In this document: positions 13,876 to 51,265 of the stretch, piece after piece
How positions within the stretch are numbered: position 1 is the first letter of the stretch
How the letters are laid out: every line of letters starts with the position of its first letter
DNA from: a virus
Taxonomy: Duplodnaviria > Heunggongvirae > Uroviricota > Caudoviricetes
Virus record (IMG/VR): IMGVR_UViG_2585427754_000004
DNA length: 64,000 nt
Direction: 5' to 3' (one strand)
The notes under the pieces: generated by a model
The model's input: only the letters and a program-made list of their open reading frames with translations
Told to the model about the DNA's origin: nothing
Databases searched by the model: none
Program-made: the position numbers and the translations under genes

Positions 13876-13950
13876 GATGGTGTAGCTCAGCGGTAGAGCA
13901 GTTGGCTGTTAACCAACTGGTCGGTGGTTCGAATCCACCCACCATCGCCA
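13876..13950 (+). tRNA. tRNA-Asn (anticodon GTT)
   Basis: Cloverleaf folded by hand: acceptor GATGGTG/CACCATC, anticodon loop CTGTTAA, T-arm GGTGGTTCGAATCCACC, discriminator G then CCA. Confidence 0.85.
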
Positions 13951-13955
13951 ATTTA

Positions 13956-14042
13956 GGGGAGTTAGTCCGTAGGGGCAGCGGGGTAGACTGTAAATCTACT
14001 GTCATTGCGACTCGGGTGGTTCGACTCCATCACTCCCCACCA
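13956..14042 (+). tRNA. tRNA-Tyr (anticodon GTA), type II with long variable arm
   Basis: Acceptor GGGGAGT/ACTCCCC, anticodon stem-loop GTAGA-CTGTAAA-TCTAC, T-arm GGTGGTTCGACTCCAT, CCA encoded. Confidence 0.8.
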
Positions 14043-14046
14043 AATT

Positions 14047-14122
14047 GCCGGTTTAGCTCAGTTGGTAGAGCGTCTGCCTTGTAAGCAGGATGTCAGCGGT
14101 TCGATCCCGTTAACCGGCACCA
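14047..14122 (+). tRNA. tRNA-Thr (anticodon TGT)
   Basis: Acceptor GCCGGTT/AACCGGC, D-arm GCTC ... GAGC, anticodon loop CTTGTAA, T-loop TTCGATC, CCA encoded. Confidence 0.75.
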
Positions 14123-14442
14123 ACACAACAGGTAAGAGCATTGGGCGAATCGGCGATACTGACCCACAAGCCCGTAAATCGATAGAGTCAGACCAGTGCT
14201 CTTACCGTTGTGAGGAAGTGCAGCTCTTTGAAGCAACCAGAAGATAAGCATCTGGCTTCACAACACAACGATAAGATCATTACGGTTAATCGTCGTTCAT
14301 GTGCACAATGACTGGTCGAAAGGTAGTGATCTTACCGTTGTGATGAATGCACAGGCTGATGTGCCGCAACTACAGTAGTGCGCGCTTTGCGGGGCTTGCT
14401 ACAACCCTGTGTCGGAGTTCAGCACCGACCATCACAATAGCT

Positions 14443-14529
14443 GGAGAGTAGGGAGCATGGTGCTCAAGCGGTCTTGAAAACCGTCCCATTGCGCAAGCGA
14501 TGATGGTTCGATTCCATTACTCTCCGCCA
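14443..14529 (+). tRNA. tRNA-Ser (anticodon TGA), type II
   Basis: Acceptor GGAGAGT/ACTCTCC, anticodon loop CTTGAAA, long variable arm, T-loop TTCGATT, CCA encoded. D-arm is atypical. Confidence 0.7.
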
Positions 14530-21220: not shown

Positions 21221-24200
21221 ATGAAGGCACTGATGGTTCGAACTGACTTCTCACTTGGGGAGTCGGCTCTAAAAGCAGAAAACGCGGTGAAGATTGCCAG
21301 AGAAGCTGGCTACACCGCTGTAATTTCAGCAGATAGCATGAATATTGCGAGCGTTATTCCACTACAACGTGCCGCTGGTGACGACATGGCGGTTATTTGT
21401 GGTGTGAAACTAAACATTGTTGATGATCCCACATACGAACACCGGGCTAAACTTGCTAAAGAATCTATGAGATGTATGGAATCATTAGAGCGGGGACGTA
21501 ACTACTCGTTTACCGCTCTAATTAAAAATGAGCAAGGATATCGCGACATCTGCGAACTAATGACGGCGGCCAACACACGAGAACAGTTCTACTTTGTACC
21601 GCGTCTCTCGCTCGAACAGTTGGTTTCTACATATGCCAAAGGCAACATCATCCTGCTTACTTCCGACATCGGTAGCGTGTTCCAACGCAACGATTTTGCA
21701 AAAATCATAAGCACACTGATTACAGCGGGTGGAAAAGACAACTTCTATAGTGTGGTTTATCCGCACCCTACCCCATTCTACGACCAGATTAACGTCCGGG
21801 CGATGAAAGTCGCCAGCGCATTGAAAATAGAGCCAGTGGCGTTCTATCCCGCTTATTACGAATCGATCGACGATGCAGACATTAAAGACATCGCGCACAT
21901 GGTTACGAACAACATCAAAATCGACCAGCCGCATCGTCTGCGTATCCCCCACCAGCGAGATAACGCCGTCAATGGTCGCCGCCATCTCCTTGAGGCGCTT
22001 AAAGCCTTCTCCGTTCGCATGGATGTGCCTGTAACAGCTGCAATGGCCTCAACAACGCAGGATACCATTATCGATTCCTGCACATGGCGCTGGCATGAAT
22101 TGCCACCAGCACTGCCAAAGATGGCAGACGACGAGCCTGCAACGCTTATGAAACTGGCTGTTGCAGGGCTGCGTAAACGTCTTACCACAAAAGAGTTTGG
22201 CTACACACCACCTGCTTCTGAGAACAGGGTTTATGTTGAGCGGCTAAAGTACGAAATGGACACGCTGACTCGCCTGGGATTTTGTGGTTACTTCCTGATG
22301 GTACGCGATCTGATGAATCATAGTCGTGAAACTGGCATTCCCGTTGGGCCTGGTCGTGGTTCCTCTGCCGGTTCTCTGGTGGCGTGGTGCATAGGCATAA
22401 CCAACGTCGACCCAATCCGTCACGGTCTTCTGTTTGAGCGTTTCATCAACCCTGAGCGTCTCGACTTGCCGGATGCGGACTTGGACTTCAGCCAGGCACG
22501 TCGCCATGAGGTGATCGAGTATCTGAATGAACGCTACGGCGAAGATTACGTTGCGGGTATTCCGAACTTCACCTACCTGGGCGCAGCCTCTGCACTACGT
22601 GATACCGCTCGTATTTATGGTGTGGAGTCCGCAGATATGGCGGTATCAAAAGAACTGAAGAACGCTGAGGATGATAGCCTTCCATTGGAAGAACTGCGCG
22701 AACAACTGGCAAGTCTCGACAAATACGCAACAAAATATCCTGATGCATTCAATGCAGCCTGCAAGTTACAAAGCCTTATGCGTGGCTTTGGTAGACATGC
22801 GGCAGGGATGATCGTAGCAGGTGTTCCTCTGACAGAACGTACACCGGTTGAGCGCCGTGGTGACGCGCGTTGTATCGCATTTGACAAGCGTTACTGCGAG
22901 GCTATGGGCCTAATTAAGCTGGACGTGCTTGGCCTGGCAACTCTCGATTTGCTCGATAGTGCAAAACGCTACATAAAAGAGAACACAGGTGAAGATATCA
23001 ATCTTGATGCCATTTCTCTTGAAGATCGCAAGGTGCTGGATGGTTTTGCTGCTGGGTACACTCAAGGTGTTTTCCAGCTTGAATCAGGCCCAATGCGCAA
23101 GCTGCTTAAAGATTTAGGTGGTGGAATTGAGCCAATGAGCTTTAAAACGGTCGTCGCTACAACTGCGCTCTTCCGGCCGGGGCCAATTCAATCAGGCATG
23201 TTGGATGACTATGTTTCTGTCGCCAAAGGCTTTATGACGCCGGAATCATTACACCCCGTTCTTGATGAACTTACCGCGGAAACAAATGGCGTGATTCTCT
23301 ATCAGGAACAGACGATGAACGCGACTCGATTGCTTGCCGGCTTCACAATGGCTGAAGCTGACGCTGTGCGTTCCGCAATCGGTAAGAAGAACATGGAAAA
23401 AATGAAGAGCATGGGCGAGAAGTTCATCGTTCAGGCTCAAGCTGGCTGGATAGACGTTGAGCTGGAAGATGGCACTACACAGCGCATTCACCGTGCGGAA
23501 CATTTTAAATGCGAAGACGGAACTCTGAAAACTGTCGAAGAGGCACTTGAGCACGGCGCAAAACTACCTATAAACGCAGTACGCGTTACAGCGTCACATC
23601 CAGGGCTATCAGAGATGAAAGCGAAGGAGATCTGGACCGCATTTGAGAAAAACGGAGCCTATCAGTTCAATAAATCACACTCCGTTGCTTATTCTTTAAT
23701 CAGTTATCAGTCTATGTGGCTAAAGACGCACTACCCTGCTGAGTTCTTCGCAGCTGCGCTCACCATTCTGGGCGAGGATAAGCATCAGGGGCTGGTGAAG
23801 GATGCGCTGACCTATGGCATTCGCGTATTGCCACCAGACGTTAATGTGTCATCTAACCGAATTGAGATCCGCACACTCGAAGACGGCAGTCAGGCACTGT
23901 ATGCGCCATTCTCTGCTGTGAAAGGCTGTTCTGAAAATGGTTGTCAGGCAATTATGCGTGCGCGTGAGAAAGTTGGTGGCAAATTCGAGTCAGTGGCACA
24001 ATTCGATGAAGCGGTCGAGAAGCGTGCATGTAACAGTCGTGTACGCGAGTCGCTTCATAAAGTAGGGGCTTTTGCGTCAATTGAGCCAGGCAGTCTGCCA
24101 GCAACTGATCCTGAACGACTGCGCGACCAGGCTGAGCTGATGGGCAATCTCATCATTGACGCTGTTAAAGCATCACGTCCGTTCGAAATGAATCCTAAGC

Positions 24201-24739
24201 GTTCTGCCGAAATCAACGTACTCATGACACGTATGGCGGCTGAAATGGGCTTGGGTGAGGAGTTGATACGCCCGACTATTGGTATTAAACCCAAAATCAT
24301 GATCATTCTGGACAATGCGAACGGCAATGACGCTCGTACCGGCTACTTCATGGAGAACGGATACGACGACTTTAAGGCAAAACTACTGACAGTTGGAGAT
24401 CTGCGCATGGGCGATCTTTATGTCACGGGTGTTTGTAAGAAGGTTAAGGACAAAGAGAAAGACTATACCAAAGACGAGATAGGCCAGTTCACAGACTTTA
24501 TGCGGGAAGAAATTAATCTTGTACGACCAACCTACATTTTGACGTGTGGTAGTCGTTCAACCGCACTATTTAACAATAAGAGTAAACCATCAGATCTGAT
24601 TGGTCGTAAGGAGTACTTCCCAGAGCTTGATGCAACCGTCTTCTACGGATTTAACCCGAATATCCTGTACTTCCGACCGGAAGAAGGAGAGCGACTGGAG
24701 GCCATTCTGGCTGATATCGCGGAGACAATAAATAAGTAA
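21221..24739 (+). CDS. dnaE: DNA polymerase III alpha subunit (DnaE-type replicative polymerase)
   Basis: 1172 aa; GPGRGSSAGSLVAW, FERFINPER, PDADLDF catalytic triad region and FNKSHSVAYSL ... HYPAEFFAA align with bacterial DnaE signatures. N-terminal PHP-like region lacks the usual His residues. Confidence 0.85.
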   Translation: MKALMVRTDFSLGESALKAENAVKIAREAGYTAVISADSMNIASVIPLQRAAGDDMAVICGVKLNIVDDPTYEHRAKLAKESMRCMESLERGRNYSFTALIKNEQGYRDICELMTAANTREQFYFVPRLSLEQLVSTYAKGNIILLTSDIGSVFQRNDFAKIISTLITAGGKDNFYSVVYPHPTPFYDQINVRAMKVASALKIEPVAFYPAYYESIDDADIKDIAHMVTNNIKIDQPHRLRIPHQRDNAVNGRRHLLEALKAFSVRMDVPVTAAMASTTQDTIIDSCTWRWHELPPALPKMADDEPATLMKLAVAGLRKRLTTKEFGYTPPASENRVYVERLKYEMDTLTRLGFCGYFLMVRDLMNHSRETGIPVGPGRGSSAGSLVAWCIGITNVDPIRHGLLFERFINPERLDLPDADLDFSQARRHEVIEYLNERYGEDYVAGIPNFTYLGAASALRDTARIYGVESADMAVSKELKNAEDDSLPLEELREQLASLDKYATKYPDAFNAACKLQSLMRGFGRHAAGMIVAGVPLTERTPVERRGDARCIAFDKRYCEAMGLIKLDVLGLATLDLLDSAKRYIKENTGEDINLDAISLEDRKVLDGFAAGYTQGVFQLESGPMRKLLKDLGGGIEPMSFKTVVATTALFRPGPIQSGMLDDYVSVAKGFMTPESLHPVLDELTAETNGVILYQEQTMNATRLLAGFTMAEADAVRSAIGKKNMEKMKSMGEKFIVQAQAGWIDVELEDGTTQRIHRAEHFKCEDGTLKTVEEALEHGAKLPINAVRVTASHPGLSEMKAKEIWTAFEKNGAYQFNKSHSVAYSLISYQSMWLKTHYPAEFFAAALTILGEDKHQGLVKDALTYGIRVLPPDVNVSSNRIEIRTLEDGSQALYAPFSAVKGCSENGCQAIMRAREKVGGKFESVAQFDEAVEKRACNSRVRESLHKVGAFASIEPGSLPATDPERLRDQAELMGNLIIDAVKASRPFEMNPKRSAEINVLMTRMAAEMGLGEELIRPTIGIKPKIMIILDNANGNDARTGYFMENGYDDFKAKLLTVGDLRMGDLYVTGVCKKVKDKEKDYTKDEIGQFTDFMREEINLVRPTYILTCGSRSTALFNNKSKPSDLIGRKEYFPELDATVFYGFNPNILYFRPEEGERLEAILADIAETINK

Positions 24740-24744
24740 TAAAG

Positions 24745-24772
24745 AAAACCCGCCTGTTGGCGGGTTTATAAA
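24745..24772 (+). terminator. Terminator hairpin after dnaE
   Basis: AACCCGCC-tgtt-GGCGGGTT followed by TATAAAG. Confidence 0.5.
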
Positions 24773-25042
24773 GAATTATGGCGCTTGTTGAGGAAGTCAC
24801 TCCTCTTACGCACTTTGTTTTGCCATGCCGGCAGTTAGCTTCTGCCTTTGACTATTCATGCGGCAACCCCGCATTTCGCCACAATGGGCAATTCACTTTT
24901 ATGGAATAAACTGGCCGTTGTGTCGATTTAATTAGCATGGCCTTACCATGCTAATTTATTCAACTTGTACAATCCTGCAAATCTATCCACTCAGGCTTAC
25001 ACCGTCTTCGTTATTGTAGAAATGAGGATCATCAGCGTTGAA

Positions 25043-25258
25043 TCAGCTTAGAGCAACGACATTTGCTGCTGCTGGGCCTTTAGCCCCATTCTCGATAGAG
25101 AATTCGACCTGCTGGCCTTCTTCCAAAGTGCGGAAATTATTACTCTGAATTGCCGAAAAATGTACAAAAACATCTTTACTGCCATCAGCAGGAGAAATAA
25201 AGCCAAAGCCTTTATCAGAGTTAAACCATTTTACTAAACCAGTCATTTTATTAGACAT
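25043..25258 (-). CDS. Cold-shock protein (CspA family)
   Basis: [23 protein letters not shown] ... VFVHFSAIQ is near-canonical for a cold-shock domain with RNP1/RNP2 motifs. ATG at 25258 with SD; ORF track start at 25354 is probably too far upstream. Confidence 0.85.
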
Positions 25259-25587
25259 AGATATTACCTTCTTAATTTTGTGAGCCACATAGTGCGGCGA
25301 GAATTTGATCTGTATAGATTGGGACTTACTTAGGCACTTAAGGAGGAGACTCACGAAGAAGGGAAATCAGAAGATAACACTGAACTGAGACTGCTTTACT
25401 AAAACTGCTTACATAAGGTCTGTCTTGCAAACCAACGATGCTATTAACGCATACCCCTTCTTTTCATGCAACCTTTATTTTTCAAAGATAACTAATTTTT
25501 GTCACCATTGGTTTAGTAAACGTTAACGAACCAGACGATGCCAGACACCTTTACAGAGAACAGATGCCCGCCAATTGGCGGGCATCA

Positions 25588-26151
25588 TTATGCGCATTTC
25601 GCAATATCTTTGCGGCGTTTAATCAGTTTCTCCGCAATTTGCTCTATTTCGTTGAAATCTTTCGAGACGCTGTTTCGAAGCGCCAGATTCCATTTACTCA
25701 AAGTTCGGGCATTTTGGACAATTTGATCGCCCTCTTTAAGTCGTCCGTTATTCATGAGCCATTCAGCCACATCAGCCCAATCCCAGAGAGGAGACTGGCC
25801 TTTTATGCGTTGTACAGGGCAAGGGAAGTCGCCGCTTCCGCGCTTACCGTCTTTGAGCAACGCCACTGCCTGGCGAGACAGGTCTGTCAGTTCCGCGATA
25901 TCGCTTAAGCCCACAAGAGCCGAGTCGACGGATTCAACAATTGCACCGATACCGGCTGATTCAATATTGTCGACCGCAGATGCGATAGCTGCATCAAGTG
26001 ATTGTGCTTCGCGGTCAAATTCTACATAGACGGAGTTTCCATATGCGCAAATTAGCGCATCGTCACAGCCGTTTTGGTACAGCGCGTCTTCCAGTCCTTC
26101 CGTCTCATACGATACGCCTGAGAGCGTCAGAGTGAAGTTATAAAGCGCCAT
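25588..26151 (-). CDS. HTH-containing protein, candidate antitoxin or regulator
   Basis: Helix-turn-helix LSDIAELTDLSRQAVALL in the middle; start MALYNF with AAGGA ribosome-binding site; 60 bp downstream of a small ORF on the same strand. Confidence 0.4.
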   Translation of the reverse strand: MALYNFTLTLSGVSYETEGLEDALYQNGCDDALICAYGNSVYVEFDREAQSLDAAIASAVDNIESAGIGAIVESVDSALVGLSDIAELTDLSRQAVALLKDGKRGSGDFPCPVQRIKGQSPLWDWADVAEWLMNNGRLKEGDQIVQNARTLSKWNLALRNSVSKDFNEIEQIAEKLIKRRKDIAKCA

Positions 26152-26211
26152 AGTTTTCCTTTGAAGATAGTTGGACAGTTTCTGCAAAAGGCGGCTAATG
26201 CCGCCTTGAAA

Positions 26212-26436
26212 TCATTTACAACGATCAACCATTCGTTTGATCTGTTTGGCATGGTTTTCGGGATTACCCGGAGTCGACCATACGCTCATTTGGTGAGTTT
26301 TGTGTTCACCTTCTGGATTACCGCATCGCAGTCTGCAAAAACAATGTGCAGCACCACCAGCTGCTACCCAGATCCAGCCTTTACTTAATGCATAGTCAAT
26401 GGCTGCTTGAATATGCTTATTCGGATGTTGCTTCAT
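26212..26436 (-). CDS. Small protein, weak HicA-like toxin candidate
   Basis: 74 aa; LSKGW ... GGAAHCF loosely resembles the HicA fold; GGAGG ribosome-binding site; palindromic operator upstream. Confidence 0.3.
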   Translation of the reverse strand: MKQHPNKHIQAAIDYALSKGWIWVAAGGAAHCFCRLRCGNPEGEHKTHQMSVWSTPGNPENHAKQIKRMVDRCK

Positions 26437-26467
26437 TCGCCTCCGATAATAGTATTCTATTCACAGT

Positions 26468-26483
26468 GTTGACATCTGTCAAC
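26468..26483. promoter_or_regulatory. Palindrome GTTGACA-tc-TGTCAAC overlapping a -35-like hexamer for the small minus-strand gene
   Basis: Perfect 7-bp arms containing TTGACA; TATTAT-like hexamer about 17 bp downstream on the minus strand. Confidence 0.4.
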
Positions 26484-26690
26484 GGCGACTGAATTTCATC
26501 CGTTCATGCCACACCCCCATCCATCTCATGTATGTGACCTAAAGATGGTCAGCACAGCTTACCAAAATAAGACAACTAATTATCTTCGGTGATCTCAATA
26601 TTTTCCCCTGAACAAAGTTGACATGACGCCATAAACCCGTTCTCTGTTTGATATAATTGATACAGATTTTATAAGTAGGAACCTATTAGA

Positions 26691-27122
26691 GTGAACACTG
26701 ATATTTTTTCTAAAATCATGGCCGATCTGGAGTTCGACCGCGACAACCTTGAGGAAGTATGGCGTAAACAGCCACGGCTTTTAATGGAGTATGGGTCAAA
26801 ACTAGCGCAGGCAGATCGAGATGTCGCAGAGGCAAAACTTAACCTTGAAGCTGTTGAAGCAAAGCTATACGACACAGAGCGTAAGAACTTGAGTATGAAC
26901 GGCATTAAGTTCAACGAGTCTGTACTGGACGCTAAGGTTAAAACAAACCCACAGTATCTGTCTAAACGGCAGAAGTTGGATGAAGCACGGCACATCGCAG
27001 ACATATACAAACATGCTGTCGCCGCCTTTTCGCATCGCCGAGACATGATCGTTCAGGCGTCAAAGATGGCCATCGTTGAATTAGAGCGATTAGGCTCTGA
27101 ACGCTTTATTACTCCCCGTTGA
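26691..27122 (+). CDS. Hypothetical protein, possible UvsY-like recombination mediator
   Basis: 143 aa, predicted helical; position next to the SSB gene and loose similarity to T4 UvsY. GTG start. Confidence 0.3.
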   Translation: MNTDIFSKIMADLEFDRDNLEEVWRKQPRLLMEYGSKLAQADRDVAEAKLNLEAVEAKLYDTERKNLSMNGIKFNESVLDAKVKTNPQYLSKRQKLDEARHIADIYKHAVAAFSHRRDMIVQASKMAIVELERLGSERFITPR

Positions 27123-29541: not shown

Positions 29542-30615
29542 ATGGCAAAAGGAAAATCCGCACTGGCACTTGCTCTGAAAAAGAAAATCGGTAGCAACGA
29601 CGAAATTCAGAAAGTAACTCATTGGATTGATACAGGCTTTCCACCGTTAAACAAAGCTATTTCTGGTCGTTACGATGGCGGCTTCCCATGTGGTCGTATC
29701 GTCGAAGTATTCGGTCCTCCAAGTGCAGGGAAAACGTTCCTTGCAACAGCAGCGATGATCTCCGCTCAAAAACAAGATGGTCTGGCGGTATTCCTCGATC
29801 ATGAAAACAGTTTTGACGTTGGCCTGGCTGTAGCCAATGGCCTGAACGCAGATGAGGATGACGGTCAGTGGGTATACAAGCAGCCAGATACCTTCGAAGA
29901 CTCTGTAGAGTTGATCGGCACAATACTTAAATTGGTTCGTGATGAAGAGCTTATCCCCGAATCAGCACCTATCTGTATCGTGGCTGACTCTCTTGCGTCT
30001 ATGGTTCCGAACTCCAAAGCCGAGAAGTTCGAAAAGATGGCTGAAGGCACTGCCAAAGACAAAGATCAGCTAAACATGAACGACAATACGGCACTGGCTC
30101 GTGCGACGAGTGCGAACTTCCCTACTCTGGCTTTGTGGGCACGCAAATACAACGCCTGCATCATCTTCTTGAATCAGGTTCGCACAAAAATCGGTGTAAT
30201 GTTTGGCGACCCTACTACGTCGCCAGGTGGAGATTCACCGAAGTTCTACGCTTCTGTACGTATCCGTCTTGGTGCATCGGTGATGAAGGATGGTAAAGAG
30301 AAGATCGGCCAGGACGTAGGCGCAGAATGCATCAAAAACAAAGTTGCACCACCGTATGGCAAATGCACCTGGAAATTCTACTTCGATCCTACTCGTGGCC
30401 TCGACGTTATCGAATCGCTCGTCGAGTACATGCTGGAAGAAGGATACCTGCCAAAGAACGCCAGCGGGCGAGTTGAAATTGGTGACAAGAAATACACAAA
30501 ATCGCAGATCGTCGAGATGTATCGGGAGAAGCCATTAGCAGAAATCATTGCTGCGTTACAGACGATAGATGACCGACGAGAGAAGACATCACCAACAGAA
30601 GAACTAGAAGATTAA
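29542..30615 (+). CDS. recA: RecA-family recombinase
   Basis: GRIVEVFGPPSAGKTFLA Walker A and IFLNQVRTKIGVMFGDPTTSPGGDSPKFYASVR closely match bacterial RecA core motifs. Confidence 0.85.
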   Translation: MAKGKSALALALKKKIGSNDEIQKVTHWIDTGFPPLNKAISGRYDGGFPCGRIVEVFGPPSAGKTFLATAAMISAQKQDGLAVFLDHENSFDVGLAVANGLNADEDDGQWVYKQPDTFEDSVELIGTILKLVRDEELIPESAPICIVADSLASMVPNSKAEKFEKMAEGTAKDKDQLNMNDNTALARATSANFPTLALWARKYNACIIFLNQVRTKIGVMFGDPTTSPGGDSPKFYASVRIRLGASVMKDGKEKIGQDVGAECIKNKVAPPYGKCTWKFYFDPTRGLDVIESLVEYMLEEGYLPKNASGRVEIGDKKYTKSQIVEMYREKPLAEIIAALQTIDDRREKTSPTEELED

Positions 30616-49678: not shown

Positions 49679-50488
49679 ATGAGTTCGGTTGAAAATGTAA
49701 TGACAAATGATGATCTGGACGAGCTGACAGCCATGTTGCAATCACTTGATGAACCAGTAAAAAAAGCCGCACAGGTTGAAAATACTGATGATATTGACGA
49801 TCTGCTGCTCGGCCTCGATGCTGGCGTAGCCATGAGTTCTGATGATGTTGCCGAAGAACTGTTCAATGAAGAAAAAGCAGGTGATTTCAGCTCTGCTTTA
49901 AATGAGTTGGAGTTAGCGCATGAGCCTATAAACGTAATTAACGCTGAAAGTGTTGAATCTGCCGAAAACGAGCCAGAACAATTGGGATTGATTGAGGTTG
50001 AAGAGTGTGTTGATGTTAATGATGAATTAAAAGTTCAACAGTCAAATGATAGCAACACAAATAAAAAAGCGCGTACTGCAAGAGGTCCTCGTTTTACTTT
50101 AAGTGATAAAGATGATTCGTTTTTCAATAAAGCAGGCTTAGAAACAGATATTTTCTTAGACGCTTACGAAAACGCGCCTGTCAAAGCAAAGGATAAGATA
50201 TTAAACCTTCTTAATTGGTTTAGCGGAGGTCCAGATATTAGTGTTTACACGGTAATTTCCATGAGACACCTTCTCACAGAAAAGAAGGCTACAAGTAATA
50301 GTATTAAGATTGCTTTAATGAGCAATCCAGAAAAACCGTATCCGCTTAACACTGCGTCAACTCAGGCTGGGCAAATGATGGCTGTATTTCCAGCGACAGG
50401 AATTGCCGTTAGAGACGGTGGAAATCTAACATTGAACGAAGAATCACCGATCGTTAAGAAGTTTGTAGCGGAGTACACTATTGGATGA
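49679..50488 (+). CDS. Highly acidic hypothetical protein
   Basis: N-terminal 120 aa dominated by Asp/Glu; 269 aa. Confidence 0.3.
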   Translation: MSSVENVMTNDDLDELTAMLQSLDEPVKKAAQVENTDDIDDLLLGLDAGVAMSSDDVAEELFNEEKAGDFSSALNELELAHEPINVINAESVESAENEPEQLGLIEVEECVDVNDELKVQQSNDSNTNKKARTARGPRFTLSDKDDSFFNKAGLETDIFLDAYENAPVKAKDKILNLLNWFSGGPDISVYTVISMRHLLTEKKATSNSIKIALMSNPEKPYPLNTASTQAGQMMAVFPATGIAVRDGGNLTLNEESPIVKKFVAEYTIG

Positions 50489-50671
50489 CGTCCCCCTACT
50501 GAAAATAAAGCCCATAGAGAGCTTTATAGTGCTGGGTAAGCCAATCACATATCCAGCACCACAAAAACGCGCCAGAGAGCTTCTCGTTTGCATTTCTGGC
50601 GCGTTTTATTTGATTGCCAGACATAAAATCAAATGCAAAAATAGGTAATCACTTACCTATCGAGAAAGACG

Positions 50672-51265
50672 ATGATTGCAGCCGAAAAAATCAAACAGCG
50701 AAAGCGCGACAACTCTCTTCGTGACCTCTGGAGAACACCTGACTGGCTGTTTTCTGCCATTCAACGTTATCTTGGAGTGACATTTGATGTTGACGTTGCC
50801 TGCAACAAGGACAATGCGAAGCTGCCTAATTTCATAGGCGTTGAGCGTGATGCTTTGAAATCTGAATGGGGACAGCCAGGTACAATTGCCTTCCTCAATC
50901 CACCCTACTCCAAAATCTCCCCCTGGATTGATGCGGCTATACGTGAGCAGGCTCGCGGAGTTACAACAGTGATGCTAATTCCTCAATCCCTCGATACAAA
51001 GTGGTATGAGCGTGCAACAGAGTGTGCGAATGAGACGATTATTCTGTCTGGTGGCCGCGTAGCGTTTGTCGAGCCTGACGTCAATTTGGGTCAGGTAGAA
51101 GTAAACATCAACCCCGGTGGCAGTATGCTCGTTGTTTTTCGAGGATTTTGTCAGGACGCTGGGCACTCTATAAGCAAGATCCCTTTGGATGTCATGAAAA
51201 GTCTGGGAGGGTATGATCCTGCGAATGTGATCAGGAAAAAAAGACCATCAAAGAAGGCTGCTTAG
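50672..51265 (+). CDS. Small phage-type DNA N6-adenine methyltransferase
   Basis: Motif IV NPPYS in a roughly 190-aa protein. Confidence 0.55.
   Translation: MIAAEKIKQRKRDNSLRDLWRTPDWLFSAIQRYLGVTFDVDVACNKDNAKLPNFIGVERDALKSEWGQPGTIAFLNPPYSKISPWIDAAIREQARGVTTVMLIPQSLDTKWYERATECANETIILSGGRVAFVEPDVNLGQVEVNINPGGSMLVVFRGFCQDAGHSISKIPLDVMKSLGGYDPANVIRKKRPSKKAA

Follow-up and report, generated by a model that had tools for sequence, protein, structure and literature searches.

What is a cold-shock gene doing inside the replication block of a phage, running against the genes at either end of its slot? The window (the whole stretch analysed, 64,000 nucleotides of Caudoviricetes DNA, IMG/VR record IMGVR_UViG_2585427754_000004) carries such a gene, here called csp, at 25043..25258 on the minus strand, where all features described below lie unless stated otherwise. 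The answer developed here is that csp probably represents a self-contained, functional cold-shock cassette, a moron that an SSU5-like phage-plasmid carries as accessory cargo in its variable dnaE/uvsY slot. This cassette comprises a cspA-type promoter, a cold box, a leader of ~178 nt, a 71-aa protein, a 3'UTR of ~300 nt with a four-helix RNA domain, and a terminator.

The csp gene and its slot

The csp ORF is intact, with an ATG start at 25258, a stop at 25043, and AAGG located 9-12 nt upstream of the start codon; a 103-aa GTG ORF in the program-made list is its in-frame upstream extension. The 71-aa product matches the Pfam cold-shock domain PF00313 over residues 5-69 (115 bits, E 1.4e-33, cut-off 27), has intact RNP1 (KGFGFI) and RNP2 (VFVHF) motifs, and keeps the conserved residues W11, F18, F20, F31, H33, and F34. 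The domain match and the two motifs confirm the near-canonical CspA-like ORF proposed in the sequence-only reading. The protein also exceeds the cut-off of the NCBIfam CspA subfamily NF007679 (140.2 bits against 130), matches PHROG 729 ‘cold shock protein’, and is recognized by the PDB structure of CspA, 2L15, at E 1.4e-32. With the CspA family taken to consist of full-length, single cold-shock domains of ~70 aa scoring over curated cut-offs, the product is assigned to this family by its architecture and motifs.

RefSeq plasmids already label the gene cspG. This name appears to be a label rather than a statement of orthology, because the CspG equivalog NF007378 is barely passed (146.6 against a cut-off of 144), the protein is equally near K-12 CspG and CspB (81.7% each), the K-12 synteny cspH-cspG-ymcF-ymcE is not matched at the dnaE/uvsY slot, and the 3' architecture is cspB-like. 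A link to retrons was also considered and rejected; the Se72 CSD effector reached 53.6 bits against an NCBIfam cut-off of 82, a score that reflects no more than the shared cold-shock domain, and the csp locus showed no reverse transcriptase.

The window is 99.8% identical to the phage-plasmid Cyrano, in line with the earlier view that this csp is borne by a mobile element; it is an E. coli phage-plasmid of the SSU5 type, similar to Cyrano and pLF82. Window positions 24740-25587 correspond to 50264-51111 in Cyrano coordinates. The replication and recombination block around csp includes dnaE, a uvsY-like gene, a gp32-like SSB, an exonuclease, and RecA. The gene had been described as lying opposite to its neighbours, which is true of the outer genes, dnaE and the uvsY-like gene, both on the plus strand, but not of the two genes directly upstream (25588-26151 and 26212-26436), which are also on the minus strand. 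These two and csp make up an islet of three minus-strand genes within the variable dnaE/uvsY slot.

The two upstream genes, encoding 187 and 74 aa, are named HicB antitoxin and HicA toxin, respectively, in the Cyrano record, labels that received no support from Pfam or NCBIfam, where neither gene has a hit, or from PHROGs; their PHROG matches are 2620 ‘excisionase and transcriptional regulator’ and 5923, function not assigned. In Y. pestis pMT and p88COLEC-2 the pair is found where csp is absent, and the Klebsiella csp carriers have neither gene; the two constitute an independent module within the same islet. For LF82 lysogens, the genes labelled hicB and hicA are listed as morons, at 14x and 30x background (PMC9928086).

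The cassette itself is delimited by two hairpins that share the core CCCGCC-N4-GGCGGG. The left boundary is the csp terminator (24746..24767; AAACCCGCC AACA GGCGGGTTT, then TTCTTTATT), recovered by the terminator scan 7 nt past the stop codon of the convergent dnaE, while the right boundary is a terminator hairpin (25563..25586; GATGCCCGCC AATT GGCGGGCATC) that follows the upstream minus-strand gene. The relative p88COLEC-2, which is 99% identical, lacks exactly the ~820-bp csp cassette and has one hairpin at the place where the window has two, ~820 bp apart. In close relatives the cassette is thus either wholly present or wholly missing, and the existence of relatives without it indicates that it is dispensable for the element. 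The slot is vacant in pF404-2, is occupied by other cargo in Y. pestis pMT and Salmonella, and contains csp in Klebsiella. In SSU5-like phage-plasmids, among them Yersinia pestis pMT1 and the pHCM2-like plasmids of Salmonella, the dnaE/uvsY junction is a cargo slot, and its cassettes are exchanged at the terminator hairpins. The GC content of the csp cassette is 0.37-0.44, compared with about 0.5 in the flanks; with its own promoter and terminator, variable presence, and deviant composition, the cassette displays the traits of a moron.

The term ‘host-like’ had suggested a recent acquisition from the host, and this part of the earlier view has to be abandoned. Amino acid identity to the K-12 paralogues is 81.7% for CspG, 81.7% for CspB, 80.3% for CspI, and 71.8% for CspA, and the best chromosomal DNA match in E. 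coli, the Qin cspB locus, reaches about 71.5%, values that rule out recent capture from the E. coli chromosome. The nearest relatives are found in Klebsiella SSU5-like phage-plasmids (93-94% aa) and on the chromosomes of Yersinia, Shimwellia, and Citrobacter (93-94%). The comparison with the Klebsiella orthologues yielded 33 synonymous and 4-5 non-synonymous codon differences, so that csp is under purifying selection, and decay to a pseudogene in related elements, which would have spoken against the gene, was not encountered. The gene is widespread: it occurs at ≥99% identity in 63 PLSDB plasmids (and at 80-90% in another 83) and in 90 of the E. coli RefSeq records searched, and 567 IMG/VR contigs carry a close relative. 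The 63 plasmids compare with about 76 that carry the flanks at ≥99%.

Promoter and leader

The csp promoter (25443..25483) was read from the sequence, and its function is predicted by homology. It contains a UP-like AT-rich stretch, GAAAAATAAAGG (25483-25472), a -35 element, TTGCAT (25471-25466), and, after a 17-nt spacer ending in TGC (extended -10), a -10 element, GTTAAT (25448-25443). The region and the promoters of K-12 cspA, cspG, cspB, and cspI line up column by column, with AAAATAA, TTGC, and ATGCGTTAAT kept. A generic sigma-70 scan misses this promoter because its rule requires the second base of the -10 hexamer to be A.

Downstream lies a 5'UTR of ~178 nt (25259..25436) of the cspA-thermoregulator type, identified with Rfam RF01766 and by an alignment that took in K-12 cspA/G/B/I and the Klebsiella phage-plasmid csp; the position of +1 was deduced from the start of the RF01766 model and the spacing from the -10. 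The csp mRNA over 25436..25018 scores 185.7 bits against RF01766 (gathering score 78, model positions 1-428), mostly from its coding part and with several model pairs non-canonical, and the leader by itself reaches 28.4 bits (E 6.7e-6, model positions 1-159), far under the gathering score. The earlier reading had suggested a look for a cold-box motif in 25259..25560, and a hairpin that aligns with the cold boxes of cspA/G/B, GGTTTGCAAGACAGACC, is indeed present at 25433-25417. Further along the leader are an ‘upstream box’ hairpin, GCCGCACTATGTGGC (25298-25284), and the SD sequence AAGG (25270-25267). The layout is that of class I csp genes, namely a leader of at least 145 nt that begins with the cold box and follows a cspA-type promoter, TTGCAT-17-TGcGTTAAT.

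Partition-function folding with ViennaRNA at 37, 25, 15, and 10 °C left the accessibility of the SD and AUG unchanged in csp and likewise in K-12 cspA, the positive control; equilibrium folding cannot see the kinetic switch. The roughly 300 bp of non-coding DNA noted earlier on each side of csp are real, measuring 303 bp (24740-25042) and 329 bp (25259-25587). Their attribution to a long structured 5'UTR is correct for the 5' flank, which is a csp-type leader, but not for the 3' flank, which is unrelated to it.

The structured 3' flank

The proximal part of the csp 3'UTR (24890..25042) was delimited by alignments and is 52-53% identical to its relatives overall. It includes a short conserved box, CAATAACGAAGACGG..GCCTGAGTGG (about 25016-24987), common to the 3' regions of Qin cspB and Klebsiella csp, and a window-specific, AT-rich hairpin of 11 bp (24961-24928) that has no T-run after it and was not called a terminator by the scan. 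The latter hairpin surfaced in the Rfam search as a chance ‘mir-2187’ match.

Beyond this region, conservation, covariation, and a covariance model (CM) define a four-helix RNA domain of ~110 nt (24775..24885). Helix P1 pairs 24885-24877 with 24783-24775 and encloses P2 (24874-24858), P3 (24846-24830), an invariant unpaired stretch of 24 nt, GGCAUGGCAAAACAAAGUGCGUAA (24829-24806), and P4 (24805-24790). The domain is 81% identical to the Qin copy, compared with 53% for the adjoining non-coding DNA. Together with the terminator, which is homologous to the one behind the Qin and Klebsiella elements, it is conserved to the same degree as the csp coding sequence. The minimum free energy fold is identical for three sequence types; each of the helices P1-P4 shows one double compensatory change, 95.9% of cells are paired, and none of 500 shuffles reached the observed covariation. 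The CM matches the window at 24887..24730 with 144.4 bits. MAFFT plus RNAalifold, applied to all five sequence types, recovered P2 and P4 only; P1 was missed because its 3' strand was misaligned, so the helices had to be specified by hand, a weaker form of evidence.

Several identities for the domain were considered. Rfam 15 gave no match in 24775-24885, even at E≤1, and the sole resemblance is that of the terminator to the end of sroH on its 3' side, with 17.7 bits where the gathering score is 80. A tRNA-like or tmRNA identity was rejected, as ARAGORN found none and the loop and junction sizes do not fit. An antisense ORF of 43 aa (24778..24909, plus strand) is not the reason for the conservation, given 1-nt indels between sequence types and G-U pairs that fit the csp-sense strand only. 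A riboswitch for downstream genes was dismissed, since nothing lies downstream on the minus strand in the window, where dnaE is convergent, and inspection showed no conserved alternative pairing of the domain with the terminator. A PR'-tR' leader of the 6S/StxS type was likewise judged unlikely, the locus not having the layout of such a leader. In Tritos, a promoter-like site and a bidirectional terminator stand within ~130 nt past Q, and cspF and cspB lie between these and the four-helix domain; the phage-plasmid has no Q at the csp locus, and the promoter scan found no promoter-like site upstream of the domain in the window.

The four-helix domain is always linked with cspB-type genes of Qin-like prophages, that of K-12 included, and of phage-plasmids. 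In K-12 it lies unannotated in the essQ-cspB spacer, the stretch of interest between ynfU and cspB being at about 1,640,980-1,641,340 on the minus strand, and it occurs in the cspB-type locus of ~31% of complete E. coli genomes. A literature search by sequence and locus names returned only uses of this spacer for primers and as an integration site. Large synthetic constructs are integrated into the K-12 essQ-cspB intergenic region (PMC2847246), a use that was counted against the best explanation. In Klebsiella pJN2-26, csp is kept without the domain, which is thus dispensable for keeping csp.

The domain and terminator (24885..24746) may form an undescribed family of structured RNA that moves with cspB-type cassettes between lambdoid prophages and SSU5-like phage-plasmids, acting as a 3'-end element that sets how long csp mRNA lasts during cold shock and afterwards, or as a stable regulatory RNA derived from the 3'UTR; to this reading as a whole we give somewhat less than an even chance. 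Under the first option, the 3' end would be guarded from PNPase, RNase R, or RNase II, possibly via ProQ or Hfq. Under the second, the invariant 24-nt unpaired stretch of the released RNA would pair with host targets. Inside the window, the best duplexes of this stretch, at -23 to -25 kcal/mol, did not outdo shuffled seeds, which gave -24 to -32. Most likely, and by way of conjecture, the domain would decide what becomes of the 3' end of the csp mRNA, through protection from 3'-exonucleases or through release of a stable fragment. Provided that it has a function, the domain would add a new component to the control of cold-shock mRNA, open to direct tests in K-12.

Role of the cassette and its known counterparts

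As a gene, csp is of a known kind: phage csp genes are common, and prophage cold-shock genes have long been recognized (cspB, cspF, and cspI of Qin; PHROG 729). By analogy with E. coli cspA/B/G/I, its promoter would fire constitutively, and at 37 °C the mRNA would be short-lived and little translated. Upon temperature downshift, the leader would take a translatable fold and the mRNA would be stabilised, resulting in a pulse of a small chaperone that binds single-stranded RNA/DNA and is able to melt RNA structure, aid translation, and let RNA polymerase pass terminators. This scheme draws on the cspA mRNA thermosensor, reportedly established by Giuliodori in 2010, on the cold box, reportedly the work of Jiang, Fang, and Inouye from 1996 to 1998, and on the antiterminator activity that Bae et al. 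are said to have described for CspA-family proteins in 2000. In LF82, the plasmid is present at about 5.5 copies per chromosome (PMC9928086). At such a copy number, the plasmid csp would add to the host pool of cold-inducible Csps, and the extra Csp would help the lysogen, and hence the element, away from the warm gut. The Cyrano reference record has no annotation for the gene, and for this reason it has no value in the LF82 transcriptomes (supplementary tables) and is omitted from the published LF82 moron list. The omitted csp, an accessory gene on a Crohn's-associated E. coli plasmid, is likely strongly regulated.

A second reading, which we consider unlikely, is that Csp serves the phage-plasmid itself as a chaperone or antiterminator on the element's own transcripts, for example in read-through of terminators in the replication block, in replication or lytic expression at low temperature, or upon dilution from stationary phase at 37 °C. 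The position of the gene inside the replication and recombination block in both the E. coli and Klebsiella lineages, the intrinsic terminators that flank it, the antitermination mentioned above, and the location of lambdoid cspB-type genes in the late operon, from Q to holin, would all suit such a role. However, the slot is a general cargo site that contains unrelated genes or nothing in well-replicating relatives, the promoter and leader are of the host cold-shock type rather than under phage control, and no terminator-rich target is evident.

Highly improbable is the view that the cassette is a neutral hitch-hiker, captured by recombination at the terminator hairpins and devoid of a selected function. 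Its presence or absence among 99%-identical relatives, with junctions within near-identical hairpins, its AT-rich composition, and a mosaic look (in a three-way comparison, the leader is nearest to Klebsiella csp and the 3' domain is shared only with Qin cspB) are compatible with this view. Yet the ORF and its cis-elements are intact in two lineages ~19% apart in DNA, with a strong synonymous excess, and most Cyrano-type plasmids, as counted by their flanks, carry the cassette.

Overproduction of the cspA leader was reportedly found by Jiang, Fang, and Inouye in 1996 to derepress cspA, cspB, and csdA at 15 °C. With this precedent, a conserved cold box, and a plasmid present at about 5.5 copies in LF82 (PMC9928086), the active product could be the RNA, whose cold box and leader would titrate a shut-off factor for host cold-shock genes and prolong the response; this is the least probable reading of all, since the codon differences show strong purifying selection and hence that it is the protein that is retained, and five copies are far under the overproduction of the classical experiments.

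The preferred reading, a functional cold-shock cassette carried as cargo, places csp beside three groups of known genes. With chromosomal E. coli cspA/B/G/I it has in common the domain protein (72-82% aa), the cold box, the long leader, the SD context, the start of the coding sequence, and a promoter layout consisting of a UP-like stretch, TTGCAT, and TGn followed by a weak -10. Unlike these genes, csp resides on a phage-plasmid; its leader measures about 178 nt compared with 159 in cspA, where cspA has the ‘upstream box’ GCC-GAAA-GGC, csp has a longer hairpin, GCCGC-ACUAU-GUGGC, and its 300-nt 3'UTR holds the structured domain that K-12 cspA, cspG, and cspI do not have.

The second group comprises the cspB genes of Qin-like lambdoid phages (the Qin cryptic prophage, Tritos, 2H10, PhiR63_1, and HannyBb). 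These are also phage-carried morons with their own promoter, and their 3' end has the same conserved proximal box, four-helix RNA domain, and CCCGC-type terminator. Qin-type cspB is located between the antiterminator gene Q and holin in the late operon, beside cspF, whereas csp occupies the replication block; identity amounts to 80-82% for the protein, 66% for the leader, and 81% for the 3' domain. Prophage cspB and cspI are among the top-expressed morons of LF82, with Tritos cspB at 59x the prophage background (PMC9928086).

The closest counterparts are the csp genes of Klebsiella pJN2-26 and pKp_SB617_1, which share the dnaE/uvsY slot and the orientation of csp (93-94% aa, leader 84%). These phage-plasmids differ in having no hicAB-like genes adjoining csp and an extra plus-strand ORF after dnaE. 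The SB617-type csp also has the 3' domain (132 bits), while that of pJN2-26 does not. The pJN2-26 gene is annotated as ‘putative portal protein’, with a note naming a CSP-family cold-shock protein.

For the 3' domain, two systems may indicate how it works. StxS, the PR'-tR' RNA of Stx phages, was reportedly described by Sy et al. in 2020 as a short, terminated transcript of the phage that acts in regulation. At the 3' end of cspE, bound ProQ guards against RNase II (PMC8464044). Neither the cspE 3' end nor StxS has a sequence relation to the 3' domain, and the domain of the window has no promoter of its own; the likeness that would make them functional leads is that of a structured RNA placed right before an intrinsic terminator, in this case at the end of a csp mRNA.

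An intact csp gene with the cis-regulatory outfit of cold-inducible csp genes

The csp gene (25258..25043, minus strand) is an intact, selected member of the CspA subfamily and carries the full set of cis-regulatory elements of cold-inducible csp genes. The CspA-like reading frame proposed by the sequence-only reading is a real gene, whose product matches the Pfam CSD model (115 bits, E 1.4e-33) and E. coli CspA structures (E 1e-32) and retains both the RNP1 and RNP2 motifs. While a mechanical ORF list gives a 103-aa GTG ORF at 25043..25354, homologues and the ribosome-binding site point to the ATG at 25258, and hence to a protein of 71 aa. NCBIfam places this product in the CspA subfamily (140.2 bits, cut-off 130); the cut-off for the CspG equivalog is only just exceeded (146.6 against 144), and the RefSeq name cspG is barely justified as a label. 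PHROGs has a phage family matching the product, and 567 viral contigs in IMG/VR encode close relatives.

Of the non-coding flanks of about 300 bp noted earlier, the 3' one measures 303 bp and the 5' one 329 bp. The proposed orientation against the neighbours applies to dnaE (21221..24739) and the uvsY-like gene (26691..27122), but not to the pair of genes immediately upstream (25588-26151 and 26212-26436), which share the minus strand. Together with csp they form a three-gene islet, towards which dnaE is convergent and from which the uvsY-like gene is divergent. The Cyrano record labels the upstream pair HicB and HicA, respectively; these labels were not reproduced, for neither gene gives a hit in Pfam or NCBIfam, and PHROGs lists the larger gene as "excisionase and transcriptional regulator" and the smaller as unknown.

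On the 5' side, the Rfam cspA thermoregulator RF01766, which models the entire cspA mRNA, aligns over its full length with 25436..25018 at 185.7 bits (gathering score 78), and the leader alone matches model positions 1-159 (28.4 bits, E 6.7e-6). When the cassette was aligned with K-12 cspA, cspG, cspB and cspI and with the Klebsiella phage-plasmid csp, its classical csp cis-elements fell in register. On the minus strand, an AT-rich stretch precedes a -35 element TTGCAT (25471-25466), followed by a 17-nt spacer ending in TGC, a -10 element GTTAAT (25448-25443) and a transcript start near 25436. The cold-box motif that the sequence-only reading had suggested seeking is present as the hairpin GGTTTGCAAGACAGACC at 25433-25417, in register with the K-12 genes. 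Further along the leader lie a TAGTAAAGCAG block, an "upstream box" hairpin lengthened here to GCCGC-ACUAU-GUGGC, and the Shine-Dalgarno (SD) sequence AAGG with conserved first codons. Equilibrium folding at four temperatures gave no opening of the SD/AUG region; since the authentic cspA control likewise shows none, this result says nothing about csp.

Recent acquisition from the host, which had been proposed for testing against host paralogues, is not what the comparison indicates: identity to K-12 proteins is 81.7% for CspG and CspB, 80.3% for CspI and 71.8% for CspA, and in 5,426 E. coli genomes the best chromosomal DNA match, which falls on the cspB locus of the cryptic K-12 prophage Qin, is about 71.5%. 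Closer proteins, at 93-94%, are the Csps of Klebsiella SSU5-like phage-plasmids and the chromosomal Csps of Yersinia, Shimwellia and Citrobacter. Codon differences from the Klebsiella orthologues comprise 33 synonymous and 4-5 non-synonymous changes, so that the protein is under purifying selection and csp is no pseudogene.

The csp cassette and the phage-plasmid that carries it

The gene is packaged as a mobile cassette in a phage-plasmid cargo slot. Judged from the sequences compared, the dnaE/uvsY junction (24740-26690 in the window, and the corresponding loci of its relatives) is a cargo slot of SSU5-like phage-plasmids whose content varies. E. coli pF404-2 has nothing there; p88COLEC-2, with flanks 99.3% identical to those of the window, carries the hicAB-labelled pair alone; in Yersinia pestis pMT this pair is accompanied by an extra ORF; Klebsiella pJN2-26 and pKp_SB617_1 have csp together with an extra ORF; and a Salmonella plasmid has another gene. 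The window differs from p88COLEC-2 by a clean block of ~820 bp. In p88COLEC-2 a single terminator hairpin (AAAACCCGCCAACTGGCGGGTTT) stands between the stops of dnaE and hicB; at the corresponding place in the window, the cassette is enclosed by a pair of related hairpins (24746-24767 and 25563-25586) that share CCCGCC-N4-GGCGGG. Cassette GC content is 0.37-0.44 and that of the flanks ~0.5. Its own promoter, its own terminator, its gain or loss as a unit and its foreign composition fit a moron. The leader has its closest relative in the csp of Klebsiella phage-plasmids (84% identity; 66% to Qin cspB), while the distal 3'UTR is common to the window and Qin cspB (81%). The cassette looks mosaic.

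Around csp, the sequence shares 99.8% identity with Escherichia phage Cyrano (OV696614, 108 kb), which is pLF82, an SSU5-like phage-plasmid of adherent-invasive E. coli LF82 that is maintained at ~5.5 copies per chromosome and makes siphovirus particles (PMC9928086). Nearly identical circular plasmids of ~108 kb are present in 90 E. coli records of RefSeq and number 63 in PLSDB. In Cyrano, RecA (779 aa; L001 12842-15181) is interrupted directly behind the Walker A motif GPPSAGK by an intein of 422 aa, annotated by PGAP as a LAGLIDADG homing endonuclease; the RecA of the window (29542-30615, 357 aa) is without it, and the window is thus an intein-free relative rather than Cyrano itself. The window also carries a plus-strand tRNA cluster at 13876-14529 (Asn-GTT, Tyr-GTA, Thr-TGT, Ser-TGA), three of whose four genes are confirmed by Rfam at gathering score.

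In LF82 lysogens, the hicAB-labelled neighbours are expressed at 14x and 30x background, and cspB and cspI of the Qin-like prophage Tritos at 59x and 93x (PMC9928086). Cyrano csp is missing from these values because the record leaves 50264-51111 unannotated. The orthologous gene of Klebsiella pJN2-26 (L002 3989-4204) is mislabelled "putative portal protein" in GenBank. Such annotation errors conceal csp from comparative and transcriptome work.

A structured RNA domain in the csp 3'UTR

Homology to the Qin cspB locus spans the whole 3' flank as far as the terminator. The 3' domain (24885..24775, minus strand, ~110 nt) is 81% identical to the Qin copy, equal to the coding sequence, and the DNA between it and the csp stop codon is 53% identical. 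In its minimum free energy fold, a closing helix P1 surrounds hairpins P2, P3 and P4 and an unpaired 24-nt stretch; the intrinsic terminator (24746-24767) follows after 7 nt (z = -3.4, terminator included). Between the window and Qin types, each helix shows exactly one double compensatory substitution, and additional one-sided changes pass through G-U pairs, which can form on the csp-sense strand only. Overall, 95.9% of cells are paired, and the observed covariation is equalled by none of 500 column shuffles and by no slid register. Across five sequence types the helices keep fixed positions, with four versions of P1 and six of P4 all pairing, while one type has a weak P2 and P3 changes register. 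Unguided MAFFT/RNAalifold recovers P2 and P4 only, and support for the divergent types, which relies on hand-specified helices, is weaker.

Conservation of a reading frame is excluded by the 1-nt indels separating the window and Qin types, and a tRNA by a tRNA search. Rfam gave no matching family for the domain, and no promoter for it was found in the window; the simplest view is that the domain there belongs to a csp mRNA of ~700 nt.

In IMG/VR, scanning for the exact pattern yielded at least 120 copies, and a scan over one genome per species found the domain in Escherichia and Shigella only. In 115 of 117 assessable loci, the conserved GCAAAACAAAG core lies 219-230 nt downstream of the end of a csp gene; in the other two, the upstream part is interrupted by unrelated sequence that looks like IS elements. 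These copies were used to build a covariance model, which matches Klebsiella pKp_SB617_1 at 132 bits and, at 41-70 bits, lambdoid Q-cspF-cspB-holin loci of greater divergence. The K-12 copy lies unannotated between ynfU and cspB, in a spacer that is used for integrating large synthetic constructs (PMC2847246). Since pJN2-26 has csp but no 3' domain, the gene can be retained without it.

Two further features lie in the proximal 3'UTR. A perfect AT-rich 11-bp hairpin (24928-24961; TTAATTAGCATGG CCTTA CCATGCTAATT) is specific to the Cyrano-type cassette; at this position, Qin-type loci have an ORF of 11 codons (MKQWLAYLAKS) preceded by a strong SD (AAGGAGG). A short box directly after the csp stop (24987-25016, minus strand; CGATAACGAAGA.GG...GCCTGAGT.G) is kept in the window, Qin cspB and pJN2-26 csp, in a surrounding 3'UTR of ~53% identity.

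Proposed role and relation to known systems

Cold would induce the post-transcriptionally controlled synthesis of an RNA chaperone or antiterminator that would supplement the host's own Csp set, and the gain would go to the lysogen at low temperature. An action of csp in the element's own gene expression is unlikely; that the cassette is a neutral hitch-hiker is distinctly less probable, and titration through the cold box is the least credible reading.

For the 3' domain, one precedent is the cspE mRNA, whose 3' end is bound by ProQ and protected from RNase II (PMC8464044); by this analogy, control of csp mRNA 3'-end stability would be the most economical guess. The alternative is a 3'UTR-derived regulatory RNA. 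Within the window, no target of the invariant unpaired stretch stands out. The csp gene itself belongs to an already known kind, annotated in RefSeq as cspG, and the 3' domain may represent a new family of RNAs associated with mobile cassettes of the cspB type.
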